This document shows, piece after piece, positions 1 through 54,003 of a DNA stretch of 64,000 nt. Both the position numbers and the translations under genes were made by a program. Origin of the DNA: Candidatus Vogelbacteria bacterium (lineage in GTDB: Bacteria > Patescibacteriota > Minisyncoccia > Phycocordibacterales > XYD1-FULL-46-19); the NCBI GenBank assembly GCA_903864935.1, contig CAIPHT010000005.1:9867-73866 (forward strand). Reading direction: 5' to 3'. A model generated the notes under the pieces. That model made no database searches and was not told the origin of the DNA. It saw only the letters and a program-made list of their open reading frames with translations. Position 1 is the stretch's first letter; each line of letters begins with the position of its first letter.

Positions 1-758
1 ACAGATGATCCTGAGATATCTATCGAGGGATAGCATCGGTGCCCTGGAGGAAAGAAATGCTCTTCTTTAGCAGGTGCCGCTAGACCAACCAGATAGCCGT
101 ATTCCTTGAGAAATCCCTTTCCTTTCCTTGCCCTGGAACATACTTCCGCATGGAAGCTGTGCAAAAGCTCGTCGGATTTCCTTATCGCCGAAGCAAAAGA
201 GAGAACGTCTTGCCGGTTGGCATGACGACTAGACTTCTCGATTACTCCTCTGTCTCTTGCTATCTCCACAAGGCTGAGCGCAGAGAGGTCGTCGATCAGG
301 CATGTTCGGAAGCGAATAATCTGGAATCTCCGCCTGGTCGGCCTCACTTTCTTCATCAGGCTCTCTCTGGCATTGTTTTTGGAGCCAATCGTGGAAAAGA
401 AAATCCACAAAGTCAGCAACCAGATGTAAGCCTTTGACCCCTTTGGCGGGCAATCGAGATCAATCACACTTGATACCGCAGCCTCGTCGGCCATTTTTTC
501 TGCCCAAGTCCGGCGGTCTTTCTTGGGCGGGGCGACAGTCTTTTCTTGGACTTTCTTCATTGTCATATTCCTTTCTTTGCTTACCCCAAGAGGGGAGCGG
601 TTTTCAATGTTTCTGGTCGAATTATGTAACGGCAAATCAAATATGTAAAGTAGCTTCGTCAGAATTGACGAAAAGATGTTAAAGGTGGTAAAATATGTGT
701 GTAAAACAAGGTTAGATTTATCAATAAATGACTAAAGTTATTTCGTCACTTTTATAAA

Positions 759-1502
759 ATGAGCTTCGATCGATTATTAAAACAACTCGGTTTCTCACAA
801 AATGAGACAAAGGTTTATCTGGCTGGCCTAGAGTGTGGGCTGAGTTCAGCTCAAAATATTGCCGAGAAGGCGGGCCTTGAACGCACCACAACCTACTCGG
901 TCCTTGGGCAATTGGTTAAGAGGGGAGTTGTGGCTAAGACTAAAGATAAGGGGAAGAGCCGTTTCTTAGCGGAATCACCCAGTAAATTGATGTCTTTACT
1001 TAATGAGCTTAAAGAGAATTTGAGTAAGACCTTGCCTGAGTTAGAGGCTATTTATAATAAGAGCCAAATTAAACCCAAAATTATTTTCTATGAAGGGGAT
1101 CGGGCGATTCAGAAAGTTTATGACGATACTTTAGCGGAGAAGCCTGAAGAGATTTTGGAATGGAACACTAATGCCTTCTTTGACAATGCTAAAGTAGATC
1201 GAGACTACATTAAGAAGCGGGTGGGCCTTGGCATCTATGCCAGGCGTCTGGCTGGTGAGGGCTCAATCTGGGCCAAGAAGAATAAACTAAAAGACGAACA
1301 GGAGCTGGCCGAGACACTAATTGTGCCTAAAAACATTTTCTGGCCGGGGATTGAAGTTAATATTTACAACAATAAAGTGGCTTTTCTTAACTATGAAGAA
1401 AATATGTCGGTAATTATTGAGAGTAAGGCAATTGCCGATGCGATGAAACAAGTTTATCGCTTGTCCTGGCTTGGGGCGCGAACCGTAGAGGCTAAAAAAT
1501 AA
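759..1502 (+). CDS. TrmB-family HTH transcriptional regulator (paralog 1 of 3)
   Basis: N-terminal wHTH resembling the TrmB family (LGFSQNETKVYLAGLE...AQNIAEKAGLERTTTYSVLGQLVKRGVV). Length ~250 aa is typical. Two paralogs with the same architecture lie at 10972 and 21461. Confidence 0.72.
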   Translation: MSFDRLLKQLGFSQNETKVYLAGLECGLSSAQNIAEKAGLERTTTYSVLGQLVKRGVVAKTKDKGKSRFLAESPSKLMSLLNELKENLSKTLPELEAIYNKSQIKPKIIFYEGDRAIQKVYDDTLAEKPEEILEWNTNAFFDNAKVDRDYIKKRVGLGIYARRLAGEGSIWAKKNKLKDEQELAETLIVPKNIFWPGIEVNIYNNKVAFLNYEENMSVIIESKAIADAMKQVYRLSWLGARTVEAKK

Positions 1503-1602
1503 GGGCCGAATTAAGTCTTGGCGAAGCAGGGGATTATGTGCTAAGATATTCTTGCTGAAACAGGTTGAAAAACGCTTTTTCAGATTCAAGTTCAATTTCT
1601 AA

Positions 1603-1674
1603 CGGGGTGTAGTGCAACGGCTAGCACGAGTCCTTTGGGAGGATTTAATCCGAGTTCGAATCTCGGCACCCCGA
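1603..1674 (+). tRNA. tRNA-Pro(TGG)
   Basis: Cloverleaf read by eye: acceptor CGGGGTG/CACCCCG, D-arm GTGC..GCAC, anticodon stem AGTCC/GGATT with loop TTTGGGA (anticodon TGG), T-arm CCGAG-TTCGAAT-CTCGG, discriminator A. Confidence 0.85.
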
Positions 1675-1683
1675 CACAAAAGA

Positions 1684-1712
1684 AAAAACAGGATTTATTT
1701 CCTGTTTTTTCT
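1684..1712 (+). terminator. Rho-independent terminator hairpin (AACAGG-atttattt-CCTGTT + T-tract) after tRNA-Pro
   Basis: Stem-loop followed by TTTTTT directly after the tRNA. It sits at the centre of a ~30-nt-arm inverted repeat formed by the tRNA 3' half and its downstream antisense copy. Confidence 0.6.
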
Positions 1713-1767
1713 TTTGTGTCGCGAGATTCGAACTGAAGAGGGGGTCGGGGAGAGGGTAGGGTTTCTC

Positions 1768-1796
1768 TTGACTTCTAAACCAATATTTGCTATAAT
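1768..1796 (+). promoter_or_regulatory. sigma70-type promoter TTGACT-N17-(tgc)TATAAT upstream of the DEAD-box helicase leader
   Basis: TTGACT at 1768-1773, 17-nt spacer ending in TGC (extended -10), TATAAT at 1791-1796. About 180 nt of leader with a stem-loop (1851-1884) precedes the ATG at 1978. Confidence 0.55.
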
Positions 1797-1977
1797 TTAA
1801 GTATCGATTAACTGTTCTAAGAAGTCTGACTTAACACTCATATATTCTCAAGGGCTGTTTCGAAAAATGCGTTACAGCCCTTTTCTGTATTCGCGAACCC
1901 TGCTAAGCCTAAAGCTAGACAGGATTGTGATTATTCGTAATGTATCCCAAAAAAACGGGGTATTTAGATAAATAATA

Positions 1978-3252
1978 ATGTATAACTTTAATAACAATAA
2001 GCGTTTTGGTGCTAAGAAACCCCTCTCAAGCAGGGGAGCTCCTTCGCGTCTCGGCTCTCGCGTGATGGGCCGTTCTTCGAGTGCCTCACGACCTTCTCGT
2101 TTCTCTAGTTCCTCGCGCCCTACTTTTAAGAAAAAGATGCGTGGTGAGTATATTGATATCGCCCGCTTCGTTAAGAAAGCGGTGGTTGGTGTTGTCTCCG
2201 AACCGGTAGTCATCGAGCACGTTTTTGCCGACTTCGGCTTCACTCCTCAATTGCAGAAGAATCTTGAAACAAGAAATTATCTTAATCCGACCCCGATTCA
2301 GGATCAGTCTATTAAGCATACTATGGCCGGCAAGGATATGATTGGTCTCGCTAATACTGGTACCGGTAAGACCGCGGCCTTTCTTCTCCCGATGATTAAC
2401 AAATGTTTCCTTGATAAGCAACAGGGTGTCTTGATTGTGGCTCCAACTCGTGAGCTCGCCATCCAGATTGACGATGAATTTAAGAAATTTACCGGTGGTT
2501 TAGGCCTCTTCTCAGCAGTATGCGTTGGTGGTGCACCTATCTATAGACAAATTGCTGACCTTCGTCGTAATCCAAACTTCGTTATTGGTACCCCAGGGCG
2601 CCTTAAGGATCTTAAGGATAGGGGAGTGATCCACTTTGCTGATTATCAAAATATCGTCTTGGATGAGATCGACCGCATGCTCGACATGGGCTTCGTGGAG
2701 GAAATTCGTCGTATCTTGGCGGAGATGCCTAAAGAGCGACAATCCCTCTTCTTCTCCGCTACCCTGCCTCCTAAGATTAGAGAATTATCCCAAGCCTTCT
2801 TGACCGACCCCGTGGTTGTCAAAGTGACAACGGGCGAGACTTCGGAGAATGTTGATCAAGATATTGTTAAGCATAATAAAGAAAATAAATTTGAGAAATT
2901 GCGTGACTTGCTCGGGACTAAGGCTCTTGGCAAAGTCCTTATCTTCTCCGAGACCAAGAGGGAGGTGGATCGCTTGGCGGTGAGCCTCTCTAAAGAAGGC
3001 TTTAAGGCTGACTCTATCCATGGTGATAAGCATCAGAGCCAGCGTGAGAAAGCTCTTCGTCGCTTCAAAGAAGATCATGTGAATATCCTTGTGGCGACTG
3101 ATGTTGCCGCTCGTGGCCTAGATATCAAGAACATCACTCACGTGATCAACTATTCCTTACCTCAAACTTATACTGATTATGTCCACCGCATTGGCCGTAC
3201 TGGTCGTGGTGACACTAAGGGCTGTGCCTTGACCTTTGTTGAGGTGAATTAA
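1978..3252 (+). CDS. DEAD-box ATP-dependent RNA helicase
   Basis: Q-motif (TPIQ), motif I AxTGTGKT, motif II DEID, SAT, and HRIGRTGR motif VI. Arg/Ser-rich N-terminal tail. Confidence 0.9.
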   Translation: MYNFNNNKRFGAKKPLSSRGAPSRLGSRVMGRSSSASRPSRFSSSSRPTFKKKMRGEYIDIARFVKKAVVGVVSEPVVIEHVFADFGFTPQLQKNLETRNYLNPTPIQDQSIKHTMAGKDMIGLANTGTGKTAAFLLPMINKCFLDKQQGVLIVAPTRELAIQIDDEFKKFTGGLGLFSAVCVGGAPIYRQIADLRRNPNFVIGTPGRLKDLKDRGVIHFADYQNIVLDEIDRMLDMGFVEEIRRILAEMPKERQSLFFSATLPPKIRELSQAFLTDPVVVKVTTGETSENVDQDIVKHNKENKFEKLRDLLGTKALGKVLIFSETKREVDRLAVSLSKEGFKADSIHGDKHQSQREKALRRFKEDHVNILVATDVAARGLDIKNITHVINYSLPQTYTDYVHRIGRTGRGDTKGCALTFVEVN

Positions 3253-3273
3253 AAAAAAGATTATACTCTTGGT

Positions 3274-3978
3274 GTGCCTCAGGAAGGTAAGCCATTTTTA
3301 AGCGATAATATTCATCTTGCTAATTTTGCCGAGGGTAAGGGCGATTTTGTTACCGTTAAGGAATTAAAGAATAAAATTGCTGATCCAAGTTTGGGTGGTG
3401 AAGGGAAGTTTGTTTTAAAAGAATATAATAAGGATCCTGTTAGCGACCTTTTTGCCCAGAAAAATCTTACGTTAGAAAAAATGGCCTCTTTATTAAAAAG
3501 ACGGCAAGAATTTACCCGGGCTTACTATAAGGAACTTCCTGAGTTGGTCGTGGAAAGCCAGTTTTTGATTGCTGAAGGAGAAAATGGTCAACCGACAATC
3601 TATGAATTTCAGGAGAAATTAAATAATTTCCACGAAACTAGTTCCGAGGGGATTGATAATATTGTAAAAAGTTTGGATCACGAGCAAAAAGAGGTTTTGA
3701 TAAAAGAGCTTAGGTATTTTGTAGAGAGGACAAACGATTTTATTGAACAAAAGAATTTGCCTGAAGGTTTTGAAGAATACGAATCTTTTTTTCCTGATCT
3801 CGGTGAACAAAATTTAGTTGTCACCGCTGATGGTCATTTAAGGGTTATTGATACTAACATGTACCATAATCTTTGGGAACAGGACGGTACTTTTGAATCA
3901 AGCGAGCAACTTCTTTTTGGTTTGCGCATGATGACAAGGGAATTGGTTTTATCTATCAAAAAATCCCAAAAAGACTAG
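3274..3978 (+). CDS. hypothetical protein (GTG start), co-directional with the helicase
   Basis: Long ORF 20 nt after the helicase stop. No motif recognised; a ...TADGHLRVIDTN... segment is vaguely kinase-like. Confidence 0.45.
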   Translation: MPQEGKPFLSDNIHLANFAEGKGDFVTVKELKNKIADPSLGGEGKFVLKEYNKDPVSDLFAQKNLTLEKMASLLKRRQEFTRAYYKELPELVVESQFLIAEGENGQPTIYEFQEKLNNFHETSSEGIDNIVKSLDHEQKEVLIKELRYFVERTNDFIEQKNLPEGFEEYESFFPDLGEQNLVVTADGHLRVIDTNMYHNLWEQDGTFESSEQLLFGLRMMTRELVLSIKKSQKD

Positions 3979-4008
3979 ACGTTTTTGTCCCCGGTCTTTT
4001 TTTATGTC

Positions 4009-4036
4009 TTGACATTGTGCGTACATTGTATATACT
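4009..4036 (+). promoter_or_regulatory. promoter TTGACA-N16-TATACT for the dinJ-yafQ module, overlapping a GTACA..TATAC palindrome (likely operator)
   Basis: Consensus -35 and -10 hexamers 10 nt upstream of the antitoxin ATG. Confidence 0.5.
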
Positions 4037-4045
4037 TAAGACATT

Positions 4046-4294
4046 ATGACGACTCTAAATATAAGGATTGAGGAGAAAGCTAAAGCTGATGCCAATAAGA
4101 CCCTGGCTCGTCTTGGCCTTGATATGTCGAGTGCCGTGAAGCTTTTTCTCTATCAAGTGGTAAAGGAGGATGGCTTACCTTTCTTGCCGACCAACAATCT
4201 CTCTACTATCAAAGCGCGTTTTGATGCCCAGGTGTCTGAGGCAAAGAAAAGCCGTGGGTTTAAAACTGCTAAACAAGCTCTTAAGGGACTATAG
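4046..4294 (+). CDS. dinJ: type II antitoxin, DinJ/RelB family
   Basis: MTTLNIRIEEKAKADANKTLARLGLDMSSAVKLFLYQVV is a ribbon-helix-helix antitoxin signature. It is immediately followed by a YafQ-like ORF. Confidence 0.75.
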   Translation: MTTLNIRIEEKAKADANKTLARLGLDMSSAVKLFLYQVVKEDGLPFLPTNNLSTIKARFDAQVSEAKKSRGFKTAKQALKGL

Positions 4295-4300
4295 TTAATT

Positions 4301-4588
4301 ATGACTTTTCTCATTAAACGAACTAAGGATTTTGAGAAGTCTTTCAAAAAAATTAGCCGTTCTGGTTTGAATTTAAAAACAAGAGAGAAATTAGAATTTA
4401 TTATTGATGCTATTGCTTGCGAGAGAAGATTAGACATAAAGTAAAAGAATCATAGATTAAAAGGGGAATTAAAAGATTACTACGAATGTCATGTTGTCCC
4501 AGATCTTTTGCTTATTTACAAAATAGAAGAGGAAGTAAATTTCTTGATTTTGGTGGATATAGGAAGCCATAATCAATTGTTTGGGTAG
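4301..4588 (+). pseudogene. yafQ: YafQ/RelE-family toxin gene interrupted by an in-frame TAA (4442-4444)
   Basis: N part MTFLIKRTKDFEKSFKKISRSGLNLKTREKLEFIIDAIACERRLDIK, then a stop, then in the same frame KNHRLKGELKDYYECHVVPDLLLIYKIEEEVNFLILVDIGSHNQLFG. Together these match the YafQ consensus (...GxxKGxRECHIxPDxLLIYK...). The catalytic C-terminal half lies after the stop. Confidence 0.65.
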
Positions 4589-4635
4589 CCTTTTGTCCCA
4601 GGTCTTTTTTTGTGTTAAGTTGTATTTGTTAATTT

Positions 4636-4825
4636 CGGAGTGTAGTGTAACGGTAACATCCACGACGCGCCCCCACACCTTTTTAACGGGGCATAGTGTA
4701 ACGGTAACATCCACGATTCGGGTTCGTGGGACTCTGGGTTCGAGTCCCAGTGCCCCGACAGGAACGTAAAAAAGGTGTGGGGGTGAAGGTTCGTGGGACT
4801 CAGGGTTCGAATCCCTGCACTCCGA
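4636..4825 (+). tRNA. tRNA-Pro-like gene whose anticodon loop holds a 125-nt insertion (4666-4790) containing a complete tRNA-Pro(CGG)
   Basis: 5' part CGGAGTG-TA-GTGTAACGGTAACATC-CCACGA (4636-4665) and 3' part TCGTGG-GACT-CAGGGTTCGAATCCCTG-CACTCCG-A (4791-4825). Acceptor is perfectly complementary and the D-arm is identical to the nested tRNA. The insert has 10-bp perfect inverted repeats CCCCCACACC (4670-4679) and GGTGTGGGGG (4774-4783). Uncertain whether functional, spliced or a pseudo-tRNA. Confidence 0.5.
4687..4758 (+). tRNA. tRNA-Pro(CGG), nested inside the outer tRNA-Pro-like gene
   Basis: Acceptor CGGGGCA/TGCCCCG, anticodon stem CCACGA/TCGTGG, loop TTCGGGT (anticodon CGG), T-arm CTGGG-TTCGAGT-CCCAG, discriminator A. 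Confidence 0.8.
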
Positions 4826-4840
4826 CAAAGCGAAGCATTT

Positions 4841-5016
4841 GGCGGAGTGAGCGAGCCAACTGCTTGGCTTGCGTCTGGGATTCGAACAGCGGAGTGATAT
4901 TTTTTCAGCAGAAAAAATTAGCGAGCTGGTGCCTAGACAAAGTTTTGCGACGGCAAAACTTTAGTCGAAGGAGAATCCCTGCACCGTAGTAGTGATATTT
5001 CCTGCACTCCGACAAA
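4841..5016 (+). repeat. tRNA-flank mimic element copy B (~175 nt), immediately 3' of the outer tRNA-Pro-like gene
   Basis: Homologous to the minus-strand segment 9201-9354. It starts with a GGCGGAGTG acceptor-like 5' end and contains three hairpins: GCGAGCCAA-ctgc-TTGGCTTGC; TTTTTTC-agca-GAAAAAA; AAAGTTTTG-cgacggc-CAAAACTTT. It ends with GAATCCCTGCAC...TCCGACAAA, a direct repeat of the tRNA 3' end plus 4 nt of flank. Confidence 0.5.
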
Positions 5017-6386: not shown

Positions 6387-7259
6387 ATGTTAACGCAAAT
6401 CCAAAAAGAATTAAGAAAAGTGGCCGACAAAGACAAGGCAAAAATTTTGGCGCGGTTTTTCAAAACTGGGAAAGGCGAGTATGGTGAGGGTGATAAATTC
6501 TTAGGGGTGGTGGTGCCGGAGCAAAGACGGATTGCAAAAGAATATTTGCGAGACGAGAACGTTGTGAGAAGTCGTTTTTCAAGTGAGCCCGAAATGCGAC
6601 TTCGCACAATGTTCGCTGACCTTCAAAATCTTTTGCGAAGCGAGTATCACGAAGACAGGTTAACCGCCCTTTTGGTTTTAGTGGAGCTGTATCGACTTAC
6701 TCAAAAAAATGACCCTACTTCGCCGAGGCTTCGCAGGGTTAATTCGCGCAAGATTTTTTTGTTTTACATAAAAAATCTTGCGCGAACTTGCCCCGTGAGA
6801 GCGAAGCGATTTTACGGGGTTAACAATTGGGACTTAGTAGATTTAAGTGCCCCTAATATTGTCGGCGATTATCTGTTTACCCTGAGTGAAGTCGAAGGGT
6901 TGAATAATTTTTCTAAAATTCAAATAAAAACATTTTTGCTTAAATTAGCTAAGTCAAAAAATCTTTGGTCGCGTCGGGTGGCGGTGCTTGCCACCTTCCC
7001 CTTTATCAAAAATAAAAAGTTCGAAGAAATTTTAGAGTTGACCAAGTTCTTACTTTTCGAACAAAAAGAAAATCATGACCTAATGCACAAGGCTCTTGGT
7101 TGGGCGCTCCGCGAAGTGGGGAAGAGGGAGTTGGGAGTTTTGAGGAACTTCCTTGATCACTATGCGGGAGTCTTGCCTCGGACCACTCTTCGTTACTCAA
7201 TTGAGAGATTGCCTCAAAAGGAGAGGCTCGAGTATCTAGCTAGGCCCAAAATCGCTTGA
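6387..7259 (+). CDS. DNA alkylation repair protein (AlkD-like HEAT-repeat glycosylase family) carrying in-frame palindromic inserts
   Basis: N-terminus MLTQIQKELRKVADKDKAKILARFFKTGKGEYGEGDKFLGVVVPEQRRIAKEY and later ...NNWDLVD..., ...LWSRRVAVLA... are typical of the DNA_alkylation repair family. Extra segments VRSRFSSEPEMRLRT and DPTSPRLRRVNSRK.../...ARTCPVRAKRFYGV coincide with DNA palindromes. Confidence 0.7.
   Translation: MLTQIQKELRKVADKDKAKILARFFKTGKGEYGEGDKFLGVVVPEQRRIAKEYLRDENVVRSRFSSEPEMRLRTMFADLQNLLRSEYHEDRLTALLVLVELYRLTQKNDPTSPRLRRVNSRKIFLFYIKNLARTCPVRAKRFYGVNNWDLVDLSAPNIVGDYLFTLSEVEGLNNFSKIQIKTFLLKLAKSKNLWSRRVAVLATFPFIKNKKFEEILELTKFLLFEQKENHDLMHKALGWALREVGKRELGVLRNFLDHYAGVLPRTTLRYSIERLPQKERLEYLARPKIA
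6564..6607. repeat. 44-nt palindromic element GTGAGAAGTCGTTTTTCAAGTGAGCCCGAAATGCGACTTCGCAC inserted in-frame in the AlkD-like CDS
   Basis: Nucleotide-identical to 45454-45497 inside comEC. Imperfect hairpin (11-bp outer stem plus inner TTTC/GAAA). Encodes VRSRFSSEPEMRLRT in both hosts. Confidence 0.8.
6716..6820. repeat. composite nested palindrome inside the AlkD-like CDS (17-bp perfect stem TTCGCGCAAGATTTTTT/AAAAAATCTTGCGCGAA plus outer CTTCGC..GCGAAG arms)
   Basis: Read directly from the sequence. It stays in-frame (...NDPTSPRLRRVNSRKIFLFYIKNLARTCPVRAKRFYGV...). Confidence 0.6.
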
Positions 7260-8245: not shown

Positions 8246-8464
8246 ATGTCTTACGGCTTCCTCATTATTTTTCTCGCCTGGCTCTGGCAATGGTATAAGT
8301 TTGGTCAAGGTCATCGCTCGATGGATCCATGGTTTCTTCGCCTCTTTGCGCTTGGGATGTTGGTCTTAGTTCTCGACACTTTCAGAATTTCTAATTGGCT
8401 CACTTGGGCCAATGTCGCCACTCTTGTCATCACTATTTTCTTCATCTGGAAATTCAGACGATAA
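8246..8464 (+). CDS. small 2-TM membrane protein, hypothetical
   Basis: 72 aa ORF 4 nt after the previous stop, with two hydrophobic segments. Confidence 0.35.
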   Translation: MSYGFLIIFLAWLWQWYKFGQGHRSMDPWFLRLFALGMLVLVLDTFRISNWLTWANVATLVITIFFIWKFRR

Positions 8465-8483
8465 AATCCTACCAATCTTTATC

Positions 8484-9104
8484 ATGAAGACTTTCGCTTT
8501 TATTGACGCTTCTAATCTTTTTTATGGTGGTGAAAAAAGTTTAGGTTGGAAGATCGATTATCAAAAATTACTCGCTTATATTAAAGAAAAATACGAAGCG
8601 GAAAAGGTCTTTTATTTTGGAGGAGTGGAAATTCACGATTTTCTCTATGACTATCAAAAAGAAGAAACCGTCAATTTATCGGAGTTAGAGAAACATTTGT
8701 TGTTGATAATCAAAAATGAAGAGAATAATTTTAACGAAGCTCGGTTAATTCTTTTTGGTCACCATCTTCAGCGTGTTCGTTTTTACAAAAAGCTAGAATC
8801 TTTTGGTTACAAAATGTTTCTCAAGCCGGTTAAACTTTTTGAGCAGGAAGATGAATCAACTAAAAGAAAAGCTGATTGCGATGTTGATATGACAGTAAAA
8901 ATTATCAGAGAAAAAGATAATTTTGACCGAGCTCTTATTTTGTCTGGTGATGGAGATTTTTTGCCTACCCTAAAATATCTGAGAGAATTAGAAAAAGAAG
9001 TTGTTATCTTGGCACGTGGGCCTAGGACAGCACGAGAAATTCGCCAATTTGCTGGCAGTAATTTTAGAGACTTCGAGTATCTTCGAGAGCTATTAAAAAG
9101 GTAA
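8484..9104 (+). CDS. NYN-domain (LabA/PIN-like) protein
   Basis: MKTFAFIDASNLFYG ... ILSGDGDFLPTLKYLRE is a NYN/LabA-like nuclease-fold signature. The ATG at 8484 is preferred over the longer upstream extension. Confidence 0.65.
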   Translation: MKTFAFIDASNLFYGGEKSLGWKIDYQKLLAYIKEKYEAEKVFYFGGVEIHDFLYDYQKEETVNLSELEKHLLLIIKNEENNFNEARLILFGHHLQRVRFYKKLESFGYKMFLKPVKLFEQEDESTKRKADCDVDMTVKIIREKDNFDRALILSGDGDFLPTLKYLRELEKEVVILARGPRTAREIRQFAGSNFRDFEYLRELLKR

Positions 9105-9200: not shown

Positions 9201-9354
9201 TGCGAGGGATGGGAGAAAACCGTCGCCCGCGACTCAAGTCTCGCCGTCGCTCAACTTGGTCTGGGCACCAGCTCGCTAGTTTTTGTTGGTACAAAAACAT
9301 CGCTCCGCTGTTCGACTCTCCACGCAAGCCAAGCAGTTGGCTTGCTCATCCCGC
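9201..9354 (-). repeat. tRNA-flank mimic element copy A, immediately 3' of tRNA-Gly(TCC)
   Basis: Read on the minus strand: GCGGGAT (the tRNA-Gly acceptor 5' strand), then hairpin GCAAGCCAA-ctgc-TTGGCTTGC, then GTGGAGAGTCGAAC (antisense to the tRNA-Gly T-arm), then AGCGGAGCGAT, then hairpin GTTTTTGT-acca-ACAAAAAC, then TAGCGAGCTGGTGCCCAGAC, then a hairpin with loop CGACGGC, ending CTCCCATCCCTCGCA (a near-copy of the tRNA-Gly 3' end). Core is homologous to 4841-4975. Confidence 0.5.
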
Positions 9355-9356
9355 AA

Positions 9357-9380
9357 AAGAGCCTCCTTGTGGAGGCTCTT
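9357..9380. terminator. bidirectional terminator hairpin AGAGCCTCC-ttgt-GGAGGCTCT flanked by A/T tracts, between tRNA-Gly and element A
   Basis: Perfect 9-bp stem with T-runs on both strands. Confidence 0.55.
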
Positions 9381-9386
9381 TTTCTG

Positions 9387-9457
9387 TGCGGGATGGGAGA
9401 GTCGAACTCCCGACCTCAGTTTGGAAAACTGATATTTTACCGCTAAACTAATCCCGC
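9387..9457 (-). tRNA. tRNA-Gly(TCC)
   Basis: Minus strand: GCGGGAT-TA-GTTTAGCGGTAAAAT-A-TCAGT-TTTCCAA-ACTGA-GGTC-GGGAG-TTCGACT-CTCCC-ATCCCGC-A; anticodon TCC. Confidence 0.8.
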
Positions 9458-9544
9458 CTTCGCTGAAGCTTCGGCGGGCAGGCCCGCTCAGCTAGCTTTG
9501 ACTTCAATACTTTAGCAGGAAAATTGAGTATTTTCAATATAAAA

Positions 9545-20501: not shown

Positions 20502-20751
20502 AAGCGTGCTGCCGCTCGGTATTTTTACACGGTAATTTTAGACAACGAAAGAGAAATCAAGGTTTTTGCCTTAACTTTAAGGGGATTTGAGATGGTAATT
20601 GATTTCTGGGCCATGACCGGTTAGAGACCAAACGGACTTTAGGTTAATGTTTCTAATAAATTTACAACCAATTTGATTTAATATCGAATGACTTAATGAT
20701 ACCACACCCCTCGTCAGACCTCAAGTCCCAAACTTGCTCAGTAAAACAACA

Positions 20752-20797
20752 CAGAAAACCCCTCCAGCGAGGGGTTTTCTGTGTTGTTTAGGCTAAC
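20752..20797. terminator. intrinsic terminator AACAACACAGAAAACCCCTCCAGCGAGGGGTTTTCTGTGTTGTT (near-identical copy at 53963-54003)
   Basis: Long perfect stem GAAAACCCCTC/GAGGGGTTTTC, downstream of clpP on the minus strand. Confidence 0.65.
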
Positions 20798-35132: not shown

Positions 35133-35175
35133 CATATATGGTAACATTTTTTACAATTGTAAAAAATGTTACCAA
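35133..35175. promoter_or_regulatory. 36-bp perfect palindrome TGGTAACATTTTTTACAATTGTAAAAAATGTTACCA (copy 1, downstream of the PaaX-like gene)
   Basis: Perfect dyad symmetry. A second copy at 35737-35774 differs by a single centre base. Confidence 0.6.
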
Positions 35176-35194
35176 TTTGGAAGGTTAAAGAAAA

Positions 35195-35713: not shown

Positions 35714-35736
35714 TATTATTATCTATTTTAACAAAT

Positions 35737-35774
35737 GGTAACATTTTTTACAATCGTAAAAAATGTTACCAGAA
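35737..35774. promoter_or_regulatory. 36-bp palindrome copy 2 in the divergent intergenic region between the PaaX-like gene and tpiA (putative operator)
   Basis: GGTAACATTTTTTACAATCGTAAAAAATGTTACC, 60 nt upstream of the tpiA ATG. Confidence 0.55.
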
Positions 35775-45093: not shown

Positions 45094-46641
45094 ATGAGCA
45101 TGGCTAATTTGAGAAAAAATTTAGCCCTGCTCATATTTGGTTTTTTGAGCGGTGTCACCTTGGGTGGTCTTATCTCTTGGGCTTTGCCGTGGGTGGGGCT
45201 ATTTTTGGTTCTCGCTCTGGCTTTCTCGGCCCTGTTTCTCAAACTTAAGCGCCAAAAGCTTTTTTTAGCTCTCGCCATAATTTTTGTTGGAGTGATTCTC
45301 GGCCTGATTAGATTTAACTTTAGCCAAAAAACTGACCAAGCTTTGCCCGATTGCTCATCTTCGTCTAGGCCTTGCCTAGCCATGGTTGTCGCTGACCCAG
45401 ACCGGCGAGATGCTTCAACGAGGTTGGTGATTGAGCTTATGGAGTCCGAGTTTGTGAGAAGTCGTTTTTCAAGTGAGCCCGAAATGCGACTTCGCACGAA
45501 CTCGAGAGTTCTAGCTATTATTGACAACTTCACCGACTACTCTTACGGCGACAAAGTGGAGCTCGTTGGTAAAGTAGAAAAGCCTCAGAACTTTTTGACT
45601 GAACAAAACACCGTCTTCGATTATCAAAATTATTTATTAGTCCGCGGCATAGAACAAACAGTTTATCAGCCCAAACTTAAAATCATTTCTCGGGGTAACG
45701 GTTCTACTGTTAAGGCTGGTCTCTATTCTTTAAAAAATAATTTCTTAGGCAATCTTCGTCGTACTTTGCCCGAGCCGGCTGCCTCGTTAGCTGGCGGTCT
45801 CATCTTGGGGGACAAGGGCGGCTTAGGTAAGAAGACTGAAGATGAGTTTAGGCAAGCCGGGGTCTCGCACATTATTGTCCTCTCTGGCTATAACATTACG
45901 ATTGTGGCCGAGAGTGTGCTCTATTTCTTCGCTTGGCTCACACCGGCTTTCTCCTGGCTCCTTTCTATTGGTTCAATCTTTCTTTTTGTCCTGATGACCG
46001 GTGGCGAAGCTGCGGCCGTGCGCTCGGCGGTGATGGGCGCCATCGCGCTCATAGCAAGGCGTTATGGTCGCACCTATGATGCGGGAGTGGCCTTAATTGT
46101 TGCCGGCTTCTTGATGATAGTTTGGAATCCAAGGCTTCTCGCCTTCGACCTCGGCTTTCAACTCTCCTTCCTCGCCACATTGGGTTTGATATATTTGTCA
46201 CCCGTGGTGGAGAAGCTTTTGGATATCGGTTCGGGATTTCTGCGAAGTCGCATCTGGCTACGCGAGAAACGACTTCTCAAAAATCCCGAGCTTTTGAGAA
46301 GTTGGACTTCAAGAGAGCCCGAAGTCCAACTTCGCGGAAGCGGGGAGAAAAAGTTTAACAAGGATGTTTGGTCCGGTCTCAAAGAGCTCATCTGCACCAC
46401 CACCGGCGCCCAACTCGCCGTCTACCCTTGGCTCCTCTATAAAATGGGCAACGCTTCGCTCGTTGGTTTCATCTCCAACATCTTCATTCTCCCACCTATT
46501 CCCATTGCCATGTTCTTAAGTTTCTTAACGGGTATTACTGGTTTTATTTCCTCCTTCCTATCTCTTCTCATCAGTTATCCTACTTATTTCCTCCTCGCTT
46601 ATATCCTCAAAATGGCTCATATCTTTGCGAGTTTGTTATAA
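45094..46641 (+). CDS. comEC: ComEC/Rec2 competence protein, membrane channel part (DUF4131 + Competence domain), with in-frame palindromic inserts
   Basis: Multi-TM with IIVLSGYNITIVAES (competence domain signature). Contains the 44-nt palindrome at 45454-45497 and a related one at 46297-46335. Confidence 0.8.
   Translation: MSMANLRKNLALLIFGFLSGVTLGGLISWALPWVGLFLVLALAFSALFLKLKRQKLFLALAIIFVGVILGLIRFNFSQKTDQALPDCSSSSRPCLAMVVADPDRRDASTRLVIELMESEFVRSRFSSEPEMRLRTNSRVLAIIDNFTDYSYGDKVELVGKVEKPQNFLTEQNTVFDYQNYLLVRGIEQTVYQPKLKIISRGNGSTVKAGLYSLKNNFLGNLRRTLPEPAASLAGGLILGDKGGLGKKTEDEFRQAGVSHIIVLSGYNITIVAESVLYFFAWLTPAFSWLLSIGSIFLFVLMTGGEAAAVRSAVMGAIALIARRYGRTYDAGVALIVAGFLMIVWNPRLLAFDLGFQLSFLATLGLIYLSPVVEKLLDIGSGFLRSRIWLREKRLLKNPELLRSWTSREPEVQLRGSGEKKFNKDVWSGLKELICTTTGAQLAVYPWLLYKMGNASLVGFISNIFILPPIPIAMFLSFLTGITGFISSFLSLLISYPTYFLLAYILKMAHIFASLL
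45454..45497. repeat. 44-nt palindromic element, identical to 6564-6607, in-frame inside comEC
   Basis: Exact 44/44 nt identity. Encodes VRSRFSSEPEMRLRT in the same frame as in the AlkD-like gene. Flanks form extra complementary arms (CGAGTT / AACTCG). Confidence 0.8.
46297..46335. repeat. diverged member of the same palindromic element family inside comEC (GAGAAGTTGGACTTCAAGAGAGCCCGAAGTCCAACTTCGC)
   Basis: Shares the GAGAAGT...TTCAAG.GAGCCCGAA...ACTTCGC framework, with a compensatory inner stem TGGACTTC/GAAGTCCA. Confidence 0.6.
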
Positions 46642-53941: not shown

Positions 53942-53962
53942 AGTCGCTCGACTTACTTCAGT

Positions 53963-54003
53963 TAAACAACACAGAAAACCCCTCCAGCGAGGGGTTTTCT
54001 TAC
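53963..54003. terminator. intrinsic terminator, near-identical copy of 20752-20797
   Basis: AAACAACACAGAAAACCCCTCCAGCGAGGGGTTTTC. Confidence 0.6.

Follow-up and report, generated by a model that had tools for sequence, protein, structure and literature searches.

An antisense palindrome behind tRNA-Pro(TGG) of Candidatus Vogelbacteria as the probable remnant of a small non-coding insertion element at tRNA 3' ends

Directly downstream of tRNA-Pro(TGG) in a 64,000-nt stretch of Candidatus Vogelbacteria DNA (contig CAIPHT010000005.1; hereafter the window, positions 1-64,000) lies a long palindrome, one arm of which carries an antisense copy of the 3' half of the tRNA gene. We consider it probable, with some reserve, that this palindrome is the tRNA-proximal end of a 3'-truncated insertion element that lacks open reading frames (ORFs) and homes to tRNA 3' ends in the candidate phyla radiation (CPR)/Patescibacteria. 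For the family as a whole we introduce the name tRNA-tail elements, with type 1 as the full form, represented in the window by elements A and B, and type S as the short form. The window was compared with 86 fetched loci of relatives and metagenomes (L-numbers). Among them, L033 is a second, independent assembly of the same strain (an ENA scaffold) that extends upstream of the window, and L064 belongs to a close relative, lies on a 202-kb contig, and was reached via its helicase ortholog. Family copies were collected with body motifs in one scan of GTDB genomes and one of Joint Genome Institute (JGI) metagenomes. The window itself is an ordinary CPR chromosome that encodes an H+-PPase, RNase Y, NusA, trigger factor, pilus genes, TIM, PGK, RecJ, ComEC, and EF-G.

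RESULTS

The palindrome behind tRNA-Pro(TGG)

The tRNA-Pro(TGG) gene does not encode CCA; its discriminator, A1674, is followed by CA at positions 1675-1676. Two perfect inverted repeats, both 100% complementary, involve its 3' part, one of 22 nt (1672-1693 with 1700-1721, around the 6-nt loop TTTATT) and the other of 13 nt (1653-1665 with 1722-1734). The antisense copy of the tRNA 3' half that a sequence-only reading of the window had reported is thus real. Apart from GCACCC, the right arm (35 nt, 1700-1734) reproduces 1653-1693 exactly in reverse complement, resulting in 35 pairs, and the 6-nt deletion mentioned in that reading was recovered as the GCACCC of 1666-1671, which has no partner in the right arm. 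The left arm comprises A52/G53, the T loop, four bases of the T stem, the acceptor's final two bases, and the discriminator, and extends 19 nt into the trailer; positions 1700-1721 of the right arm combine a terminator-like half with the complement of tRNA positions 71-72, discriminator, and trailer.

Folding of the palindrome as RNA yielded -55.3 kcal/mol (z = -9.6), and none of 200 shuffled sequences was as stable. Folding as DNA yielded -38.7 kcal/mol (z = -10.9), a value that no shuffle equaled. Given these scores, the 35 paired bases, and the recurrence of the pattern at other tRNAs, the probability of a chance inverted repeat is practically nil. An assembly artifact is also unlikely, since the independent assembly L033 is 99.98% identical to window positions 1-4101.

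The earlier reading had placed a terminator at the center of the palindrome. The inner stem ACAGGA/TCCTGT (three G-C pairs) and the T tract T6CT4 are indeed terminator-like by sequence, but a consensus terminator scan made no call, probably because the maximal stem runs into the T tract. For a transcript ending at or before position 1716, an intact cloverleaf with a separate hairpin was predicted, whereas read-through to 1760 was predicted to sequester the T arm and the acceptor strand, the long hairpin being favored over the cloverleaf. The pairing with the tRNA 3' half that had been proposed for the precursor would thus be confined to the read-through transcript; against it stand the hairpin and T tract between the arms, the cloverleaf that stays intact up to 1716, and the two mismatches in the arm of the L035 ortholog. 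Further downstream lies a DEAD-box helicase gene (1978-3252), the promoter of which forms the right boundary of the inserted segment described below.

Strain-specific DNA at the tRNA-Pro(TGG) locus

The relative L064 possesses an identical tRNA-Pro(TGG) (3689-3761), the same promoter, and a helicase that is 96% identical to its window ortholog. A blastn comparison of L064 with the window revealed homology only at 1557-1676 and 1766-3254: it breaks off at ...CCCCGACA (window 1676, GACA) and is back at the helicase promoter (1766). The segment 1677-1765 in between is therefore strain-specific DNA. It holds most of the left arm past CA, the loop, the entire right arm, and a G-rich tail, and since the homology ends at 1676, nucleotides 1677-1693 of the left arm are themselves inserted DNA. 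In L064, the tRNA (...CACCCCGACA) is followed by the ATG of a 622-aa ORF, without a Pfam match, that ends just before the TTGACT...TATAAT promoter; in a second relative, L035, the alignment to the window begins only at 1767. Judging from these alignments, the palindrome is not a conserved feature of tRNA-Pro(TGG). Segment 1677-1765 is likely to be element-derived insert DNA.

The sequence-only reading had offered two options for a mechanism shared with elements A and B, namely, pairing in the precursor or a recombination footprint. The latter is nearer the truth, because the right arm sits in an 89-nt strain-specific segment that starts exactly after the tRNA and CA, and because full copies, which have direct repeats and for which orthologous sites are empty, are insertions (see below). 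Yet the arm is a constant part of the element and more than a passive footprint, because it recurs throughout a family that has a conserved, covarying body.

The tRNA cluster of L064 is the same as that of the window and L033 (Arg, Leu, Gly-GCC, Pro-TGG, Pro-CGG, Gly-TCC). Upstream of tRNA-Pro(TGG), L064 has a 90-aa GIY-YIG ORF (3426-3698) that overlaps the start of the tRNA by 10 nt, at the place where the window has a TrmB-like gene. This gene offered no route to orthologous loci, as it is widespread in CPR with synteny lost and is followed by RuvA or others. In L033, upstream of the window (1816-1903), the convergent tRNA-Leu(CAG) and tRNA-Gly(GCC) share a palindrome with 19-bp arms (CCCACACCAATATTTTCAT...ATGAAAATATTGGTGTGGG), which begins directly after the Gly discriminator. 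The motif CCCACAC is also found after a second tRNA-Gly(TCC) in L066 (8022, minus strand) and resembles the inverted repeat of a nested insert that is described below.

Elements A and B and the type-1 body

Elements A and B (Table 1) are 80-89% identical and share one order of parts: tRNA, anti-acceptor, 25-nt cassette hairpin, anti-T arm, conserved body, and a direct copy of the tRNA 3' end. The antisense T arm that had been noticed in both is complementary to the respective tRNA at 12 of 13 positions in A and without mismatch in B. The ortholog of B in L035 is 97.5% identical.

The alignment of type-1 bodies comprises 107 columns. It revealed a two-domain consensus structure of 26 pairs, 12 of which show compensatory changes, and invariant unpaired blocks (GAACAGCGGAG, UAGCGAGCUGG, AGUCG, and GG.GA). 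All type-1 copies share one contiguous core of ~92 nt. A covariance model built from this alignment (R1) detected only A and B in the window, and weaker relatives at 41 bits in three loci. The sense strand of the body folded better than the antisense strand by 6 kcal/mol, in 15/15 bodies, and G.U and A.C pairs were equally frequent (3 each). When the elements were compared with Rfam 15, only the tRNA reached the threshold, and permissive scans returned generic hairpins of ≤25 bits. No element copy was present in IMG/VR or in phage and plasmid collections; in IMG/VR, a specific two-block pattern had no match, and matches to short patterns, which were checked by eye and with R1, had arisen by chance in coding sequences of high-GC phages.

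Domain 2 of the type-1 body (GCUGG UGCCCAG A CA - hairpin - A GU CGnGGGA; 4888-4975) resembles the succession of tRNA 3' end, hairpin, and antisense acceptor, and R1 aligned the tRNA-Pro(TGG) palindrome onto this domain. The architecture of the elements may thus be self-similar or iteratively built.

Full copies are insertions at tRNA 3' ends

Empty orthologous sites, tandem arrays, and tRNA-specific matching show that the full copies are insertions. At tRNA-Pro(CGG), which is intact in L064, L035, and L053, the site of A is empty in L064 (7190-7275) and L035: the tRNA is directly followed by CAAATTTCT... or CAAACAAAA..., and in the window the same trailer follows the second copy of CCTGCACTCCGACAAA, 171 nt further on. 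L053 has a different type-1 copy at this tRNA, and the differences in its spacer and the missing cassette indicate an independent insertion. tRNA-Gly(TCC) has no element in L070 and a type-1 copy in the window and in L035; in L066/L064 it is followed by a different, shorter element and then by the 3' fragment of an old type-1 copy. L040, L038, and L044 contain arrays of two or three units that each terminate in the repeat, and L066 is also tandem. Within these arrays the tRNA-proximal unit has the best-matched arm and the distal units are decayed, a pattern that successive insertions at the live tRNA end would produce. The spacer arrives with the element, since the elements B and L066 share a tRNA but not a spacer, and empty sites have none.

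Direct repeats of the tRNA 3' end, with lengths varying between 13 and 25 nt, flank the inserts in A, B, L040, L042, L044, and L066, but not the tRNA-Pro(TGG) copy. Repeats from the T arm to the tRNA 3' end are reportedly the classical signature of integration at tRNA genes, and they would also be left by an integrase-bearing prophage or island of which only a deletion scar survives, the conserved sequences being the remains of attP arms. The position of a serine-recombinase island of 8 kb exactly at a tRNA-Glu 3' end in L048, beside such elements, is in line with this scenario. However, independent deletions would differ in their junctions, and the type-1 copies share their contiguous core. 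Covarying hairpin stems are unexpected for duplex attP arms, no integrase was found next to any copy, and the phage and plasmid collections mentioned above, IMG/VR included, contained no copy. We therefore regard deletion scars as very unlikely.

The island itself (L048 2150-10130) begins exactly after tRNA-Glu(CTC) ...TAGGGTCAC, encodes a large serine recombinase, two N6/N4 DNA methylases, and a LexA/S24 fusion, and is followed by a type-1 and a type-4 element. Larger integrative elements thus use the same tRNA ends.

Distribution of the family and matching of the arm to its tRNA

About 15 distinct further copies were obtained, all of them in CPR metagenome-assembled genomes or metagenome contigs; the named hosts are Paceibacterota and Saccharibacteria, and the other contigs are of the same type. 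This recurrence of downstream antisense copies at about 15 further CPR loci refutes a coincidence, which the sequence-only reading had left as an option. Nine kinds of tRNA carry copies (Gly-TCC, Pro-CGG, Ser-GGA, Lys-TTT, Lys-CTT, Gln-TTG, Glu-CTC, Phe-GAA, and Tyr-GTA), and all further copies are in tRNA orientation.

Specificity of the arm was scored in 13 copies over seven variable tRNA positions (59-65). Each of the 13 arms matched its own tRNA at 6-7 of the 7 positions, and the other tRNAs of the set matched at 3.2-4.4 positions on average and never at more than 6. At positions 59-60, the T-loop variants AT, CT, TT, and GT have the counterparts AT, AG, AA, and AC in the arms, which identifies the arm as genuinely antisense and excludes a sense copy of the 5' strand of the T stem. 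In L050, where the acceptor shows an apparent T4.G69 wobble (manual read), the arm complements G69 and not the tRNA's own 5' base. Furthermore, the arm tracks the live tRNA and not the displaced direct repeat, which has a generic ...ATT before position 61: in L035, L039, and L049 the terminal repeat is cut or decayed, while the arm still fits the live tRNA. The arm of the L035 ortholog has acquired two mismatches. Among 27 tRNAs surveyed from all fetched DNA, downstream antisense scores of at least 9.5 were seen only at tRNAs followed by an element, and 11 of the 27 had nothing.

These data also bear on a purely local origin of the palindrome, in which a replication error, namely, a template switch at a pre-existing terminator hairpin, extended the arms into the tRNA without any mobile element. 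Templated copying would yield perfect arms that run through an arbitrary trailer, as do the 22- and 13-nt arms at tRNA-Pro(TGG), and similar trailer palindromes exist in L039, L050, L053, and L066. Yet the left arm past CA is missing in L064, which leaves no pre-existing terminator to extend; the end point (52/53, ...GAAC), the junction break, and the G-rich continuation recur at other tRNAs and in other genomes; and the 11 tRNAs just mentioned show nothing comparable. A template switch on its own is consequently rather unlikely, and we continue to favor a truncated insertion element.

Other body types also occur behind tRNAs, and all of them terminate in a directly repeated tRNA 3' end. They include a ~175-nt insert with an 18-nt repeat behind tRNA-Leu(TAA) (L043 2945-3130, minus strand), units that we term type 2 (L040 2414-2866), and type-4 units, which score 41 bits with R1 (L044 1973-2230). 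The family is thus diverse in body type. A limited search of the literature returned no description of such elements. Provided that the family is what it seems, CPR tRNA-tail elements would be an apparently undescribed class of tiny non-coding elements.

The tRNA-Pro(TGG) copy as a truncated short form

The short element behind tRNA-Gly(TCC) in L066/L064 begins after CA with a palindromic spacer. In L066, this spacer has 20-bp arms, and the antisense arm that comes next, TGCGG-AGAGAGTCGAAC, lacks ~4 nt at the acceptor/T-stem junction; it is followed by AGGAGTGGGGTCGGGAGAAC..., a body of ~90 nt that reads AGGAGTGGGGTCGGGAGAACACCTGTTCTCCCGTGGAGGAA...AAAACCGTGGGTTT..., and the repeat CTCTCCCATCCCGCACA. 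The same short-form body blocks are present at the end of the L053 contig, ahead of TTCTCGGCATCCCGACA, the 3' end of a tRNA-Pro-like gene. The window copy and the L066 short form have in common the start after CA, a palindromic A/T-tract spacer, an arm ending in GAAC, and a gap at the same junction, of 6 nt at tRNA-Pro(TGG) and ~4 nt in L066, where full-length copies have the cassette hairpin. Like the family members, the tRNA-Pro(TGG) copy has its position after CA, a spacer (1677-1716) that is missing in L064, an arm that fits its own tRNA, and a junction break. Its arm corresponds to positions 53-65 and ends in GAAC (12/13 matches, 1722-1733), agreeing with its own tRNA at 6 of the 7 variable positions as compared to a mean of 4.2 in other tRNAs.

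The G-rich remnant that follows the arm is the probable start of a short-form body, as it aligns with GAGTGGGGTCGGGAGAACACCTGTTCTC of L066, which sits right after the GAAC of that element; the type-S body start pattern used for this comparison was GAG-GGGG-TCGGG-AGA...TTCTC. The later type-S blocks CTCCCGTGGAGGAA and AAAACCGTGGGTTT are absent from the window copy, which fits a truncation at 1767. A complete short-form copy at this tRNA would be expected to carry CTCCCGTGGAGGAA ... AAAACCGTGGGTTT and then the repeat CTCGGCACCCCGACA. Taken together, the comparison suggests that the tRNA-Pro(TGG) copy is a 3'-truncated type-S tRNA-tail element; any specific mechanism is far less certain.

A number of results weigh against this explanation. 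The similarity of the window continuation, GAAGAGGGGGTCGGGGAGAG...TTTCTC, to the start of the L066 body is suggestive only (shuffle p ~0.03-0.05). The comparison with the A/B core that the earlier reading had called for went the other way, as R1 found no type-1 body at 1550-1900 (best 2.6 bits, E = 0.4). No terminal direct repeat was detected behind tRNA-Pro(TGG), where the best downstream direct copy scored 5.0, equal to background, and no relative with a complete element at this tRNA was recovered. No transposase, recombinase, or reverse transcriptase was found in or near any copy, and when the ORFs of 14 element-bearing loci were clustered, no protein recurred across independent loci; mobility is therefore deduced from presence/absence patterns only. 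Two loci of one metagenome-assembled genome (L036 and L039) and a third from the same sample (L053) have identical cores with different arms and spacers. Lastly, the distinction between single-stranded DNA and RNA is met by divergent signals, as the sense strand folds better in every body and yet G.U pairs merely equal A.C pairs.

Pfam scans of ten ORFs in the first 10 kb of the window (1-10 kb), of twenty further window ORFs, and of others returned only housekeeping genes and syntenic orthologs. Despite their different arms, L036, L039, and L053 have a homologous cassette between the two arm segments. Candidate routes of arm retargeting are modular recombination with concerted evolution of the core, correction of the arm after insertion, and templated acquisition.

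Proposed architecture and alternative functions

In the architecture that we propose, a complete insertion starts right after tRNA ...CA (or CCA) and contains, in this order, (i) a spacer composed of A tract, GC hairpin, and T tract, (ii) a strand complementary to positions 53-73 of the neighboring tRNA, often including the trailer, which in all cases ends in ...GAAC and is broken at the acceptor/T-stem junction by the hairpin cassette or a 4-6-nt gap, (iii) the conserved structured body, and (iv) a directly repeated tRNA segment that runs from position 61 to the 3' end. In this order, the spacer links the live tRNA end to the complementary strand, and the three make up one long imperfect hairpin with a fixed break at the junction. 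At tRNA-Pro(TGG), what survives would be parts (i) and (ii) and ~33 nt of a short-form body, the rest being missing at the helicase promoter. The folded hairpin, as single-stranded DNA, cruciform, or RNA, may imitate or read the duplex end of the tRNA gene and, by analogy with attC, CTX-phi, and the left end of IS200/IS605, could act as attachment site or guide for a putative trans-acting enzyme. Intrastrand templated repair may keep young arms perfect through the arbitrary trailer. Today, the truncated tRNA-Pro(TGG) copy probably only terminates or insulates tRNA transcription before the helicase promoter.

A bolder version would see the elements as ORF-less mobile units with a programmable, tRNA-homing guide that is rewritten from each new target. 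Two target-complementary stretches would be set in a constant scaffold (spacer hairpin, cassette hairpin, and two-domain core), and the RNA or folded single-stranded DNA would steer a putative trans-acting enzyme to insert the element behind the matching tRNA gene. We give this idea a small chance of being correct; such a nucleic-acid-guided system would differ from the bridge RNAs of IS110, the guides of IS605, and CRISPR-associated transposons.

An action at the RNA level is an alternative that we likewise hold to be unlikely, if worth keeping in mind. The antisense segments of a transcribed element, produced by tRNA read-through or from its own transcription, would pair with the T loop, T stem, and acceptor 3' strand of the tRNA and affect precursor processing; in a variant, they would pair with the terminal repeat and form an acceptor/T minihelix for RNase P, RNase Z, or the CCA-adding enzyme. 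The geometry, two guide-like stretches flanking a constant hairpin, would suit such a role, as would the hairpin favored in the read-through tRNA-Pro(TGG) transcript, the invariant unpaired nucleotides and 12 covarying pairs of the body, and the superior folding of its sense strand. In the folds of A and B, the terminal repeat is the pairing partner of both the anti-acceptor and the anti-T-stem segment, and the cassette stands where positions 8-48 leave the tRNA; a weak likeness to a permuted transfer-messenger RNA (tmRNA) exists at the A junction. In most copies, however, a hairpin and T tract separate the tRNA from the arm, and a transcript ending there leaves the tRNA intact. The minihelix is not conserved, given the loss or decay of the terminal repeat in L035, L039, and L049 while the arm still matches. 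The two arm mismatches of the L035 ortholog, the lack of G.U enrichment over A.C, the absence of any consistently present downstream gene, and the tRNA-Pro(TGG) copy, which has no body, also argue against it.

Rearrangements and other repeats in the window

At positions 4636-4826 of the window, the resident tRNA-Pro(CGG) (acceptor CGGAGTG/CACTCCG) is split in its anticodon loop, the loop bases TTCGGG being replaced by ~122 nt (4666-4787). This insert consists of a 15-bp inverted repeat (CCCCCACACCTTTTT, 4670-4684; AAAAAGGTGTGGGGG, 4769-4783) around a second tRNA-Pro(CGG) (4687-4758), which is complete and has a different, compensated acceptor stem. A tRNA-carrying mini-insert has thus disrupted and replaced a tRNA of the same anticodon. 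No other copies of the 15-bp inverted repeat were found in the window or in the 86 fetched loci. Compared to L064, the window has an extra NYN-domain gene (8412-9104) and, from the helicase to tRNA-Pro(CGG), an additional 1.3 kb (3255-4590) with a RelB antitoxin and a 234-aa ORF; the segment with tRNA-Gly(TCC) and its element is inverted (9201-9489). All tRNA flanks are hot spots of rearrangement.

Three other repeats of the window are unrelated to tRNA elements, namely, a 46-nt exact repeat (6562-6607 = 45452-45497), a 43-nt repeat of 98% identity with a terminator-like hairpin (20738-20780 and 53958-54000), and a 39-nt palindromic pair 555 nt apart (35139-35177 and 35733-35771).

Table 1. 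Positions of the tRNA-Pro(TGG) palindrome and of elements A and B in the window
Feature	Position	Strand	Basis or remark
tRNA-Pro(TGG)	1603-1674	+	ARAGORN; Rfam tRNA 61.5 bits
Left arm, distal: A52, G53, T loop TTCGAAT, T-stem 3' bases CTCG	1653-1665	+	Inverted repeat
Bulge GCACCC without partner in the right arm (tRNA positions 65-70)	1666-1671	+	Inverted repeats, folding
Left arm, proximal: CG (positions 71-72), discriminator A, CA, A-rich stretch, ACAGGA	1672-1693	+	Inverted repeat
Strain-specific segment, 89 nt, between tRNA+CA and helicase promoter	1677-1765	+	blastn versus L064
Hairpin loop TTTATT, palindrome center	1694-1699	+	Inverted repeat, folding
Right arm, proximal: TCCTGT, T tract T6CT4, GTGTCG	1700-1721	+	Inverted repeat
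Right arm, distal: CGAGATTCGAACT, antisense T arm, complementary to tRNA positions 52-64	1722-1734	+	Inverted repeat
G-rich remnant GAAGAGGGGGTCGGGGAGAGGGTAGGGTTTCTC, probable start of short-form body	1735-1767	+	Aligns with L066 GAGTGGGGTCGGGAGAACACCTGTTCTC
Promoter-like TTGACT-17-TATAAT (with TG), 11/12 matches	1768-1796	+	Kept in L035 and L064
Element A, full type 1, behind resident tRNA-Pro(CGG)	4830-5000	+	R1 120 bits
Element A, flanking 16-nt direct repeat CCTGCACTCCGACAAA	4814-4829 and 5001-5016	+	
Element A, spacer	4830-4842	+	
Element A, anti-acceptor CGGAGTG	4843-4849	+	Complement of acceptor 3' strand
Element A, cassette hairpin	4850-4874	+	
Element A, anti-T arm CTGGGATTCGAAC	4875-4887	+	T-stem 3' strand, T loop, G53
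Element A, body	from 4888	+	
Element B, full type 1, behind tRNA-Gly(TCC) (9457->9387)	9201-9386	-	R1 113.5 bits
Element B, terminator-like spacer	9386->9355	-	
Element B, anti-acceptor GCGGGATG	9354->9347	-	Complement of acceptor 3' strand
Element B, cassette	9346->9322	-	
Element B, anti-T arm GGAGAGTCGAAC	9321->9310	-	12/12 complementary
Element B, body	9309->9217	-	
Element B, direct copy of tRNA end TCTCCCATCCCTCGCA	9216->9201	-	

DISCUSSION

If our explanation holds, each CPR tRNA-tail element carries a strand matched to its particular tRNA, and the elements would account for much of the strain-to-strain variation at tRNA genes in reduced CPR genomes; in the window, all three tRNA loci are affected, and close relatives differ at each of them. 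Both tRNA annotation and genome assembly can be misled by the look-alikes of tRNA halves and the long palindromes that the elements create. The elements also furnish tRNA genes with preformed, terminator-like hairpins on their 3' side. A constant scaffold combined with a variable segment that fits the target follows a guide-directed logic, and the discovery of a partner enzyme could uncover a new mode of targeting. At tRNA-Pro(TGG) the consequences are modest, and it is the family, more than the locus, that merits follow-up.

Several known kinds of RNA and mobile DNA were tried as candidates and rejected. A permuted tmRNA is contradicted by a partial beta-tmRNA score of 17 bits, as compared to a gathering score of 84 bits, by tRNAs (Pro and Gly) that are not Ala-like, and by the lack of a tag frame. 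The primer-binding site of a tRNA-primed retroelement does not fit, since the complement runs into the trailer (CA...) and not into CCA and there is no reverse transcriptase. Group I introns (P1/internal guide), group II introns, and retron msr/msd have the wrong size, and neither a conserved catalytic core nor a reverse transcriptase ORF is present; a likeness to retron Ec86 (UAGCGAG) was dropped together with the retron reading. An H/ACA-like guide pocket has a similar geometry, but there is no lower stem and no consistently unpaired target nucleotide, and it was kept only within the RNA-level alternative; bacteria are not known to have an H/ACA-type ribonucleoprotein. Breakage at a palindromic restriction site in the T loop (TTCGAA) is at odds with copies that are non-palindromic there (TTCGACT, TTCGGTT). 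The elements are not miniature inverted-repeat transposable elements, as their ends (the spacer and ...GGGAGA-ATT) are not inverted repeats, the sole inverted pair is tRNA-derived and copy-specific, and the repeat measures 13-25 nt. The feet of the hairpin, GTTCGAAT ... ATTCGAAC, have the opposite polarity to integron attC and violate the RRR/YYY pattern. An IS110-type bridge RNA, which has a DEDD/serine recombinase gene beside it and guide loops that pair with both strands of target and donor, does not agree with the missing ORF and with two segments complementary to the same strand, and a classical integrase-carrying element does not agree with units of 110-190 nt that contain no ORF and with neighbors that include no recombinase.

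Comparison with known systems

The resemblance to integrative elements at tRNA genes (tyrosine-integrase prophages, islands, and their integrase-less cis-mobilizable derivatives) includes insertion at the 3' part of an intact tRNA, a direct repeat of 13-25 nt that begins in the T arm (position 61) and reaches the 3' end or extends beyond it, and tandem arrays from repeated insertion at one tRNA. In contrast, tRNA-tail elements measure only ~110-190 nt, are devoid of ORFs, and have a conserved core with covarying hairpins. They also differ from classical att sites in adding an inverted copy of the target beside attL that reaches into the T loop, past the direct repeat. Quasipalindrome correction by intrastrand template switching would explain perfect young arms through an arbitrary trailer, but leaves the foreign origin of the spacer, the conserved body, and the direct repeats unexplained.

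The likeness to integron attC and to attP(+) of CTX-phi, both single-stranded recombination sites that fold into hairpins (the latter used by XerCD), is structural only: an imperfect hairpin with a fixed extrahelical bulge or branch would rebuild a duplex site, and an inverted copy of the site is found at one end of the element after integration. Unlike those sites, tRNA-tail elements have neither the R''/R' consensus (RYYYAAC/GTTRRRY) nor a dif-like sequence, their target is a tRNA gene, and no recombinase was found for them.

With IS200/IS605 and the ORF-less palindrome-associated transposable elements (PATEs), the family shares a small, non-coding, hairpin-rich makeup, orientation-specific insertion directly 3' of the target, and putative target recognition by base pairing with an internal guide at the left-end hairpin, which comprises 4 nt in IS200/IS605 as compared to an arm of 13-21 nt here. 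IS200/IS605 cause no target duplication, whereas tRNA-tail elements end in a direct repeat, and no TnpA or TnpB was found. In the specific comparison with IS200/IS605-derived PATEs, hairpins were present, as were direct repeats, and the window contained no TnpA.

The bridge (seek) RNAs of IS110/IS1111 differ in that the stretches of tRNA-tail elements are complementary to one strand and collinear, with no adjacent recombinase and no recognized donor-binding loop. The two have in common a module of ~170 nt in which a constant scaffold presents variable, target-matching stretches around a hairpin.

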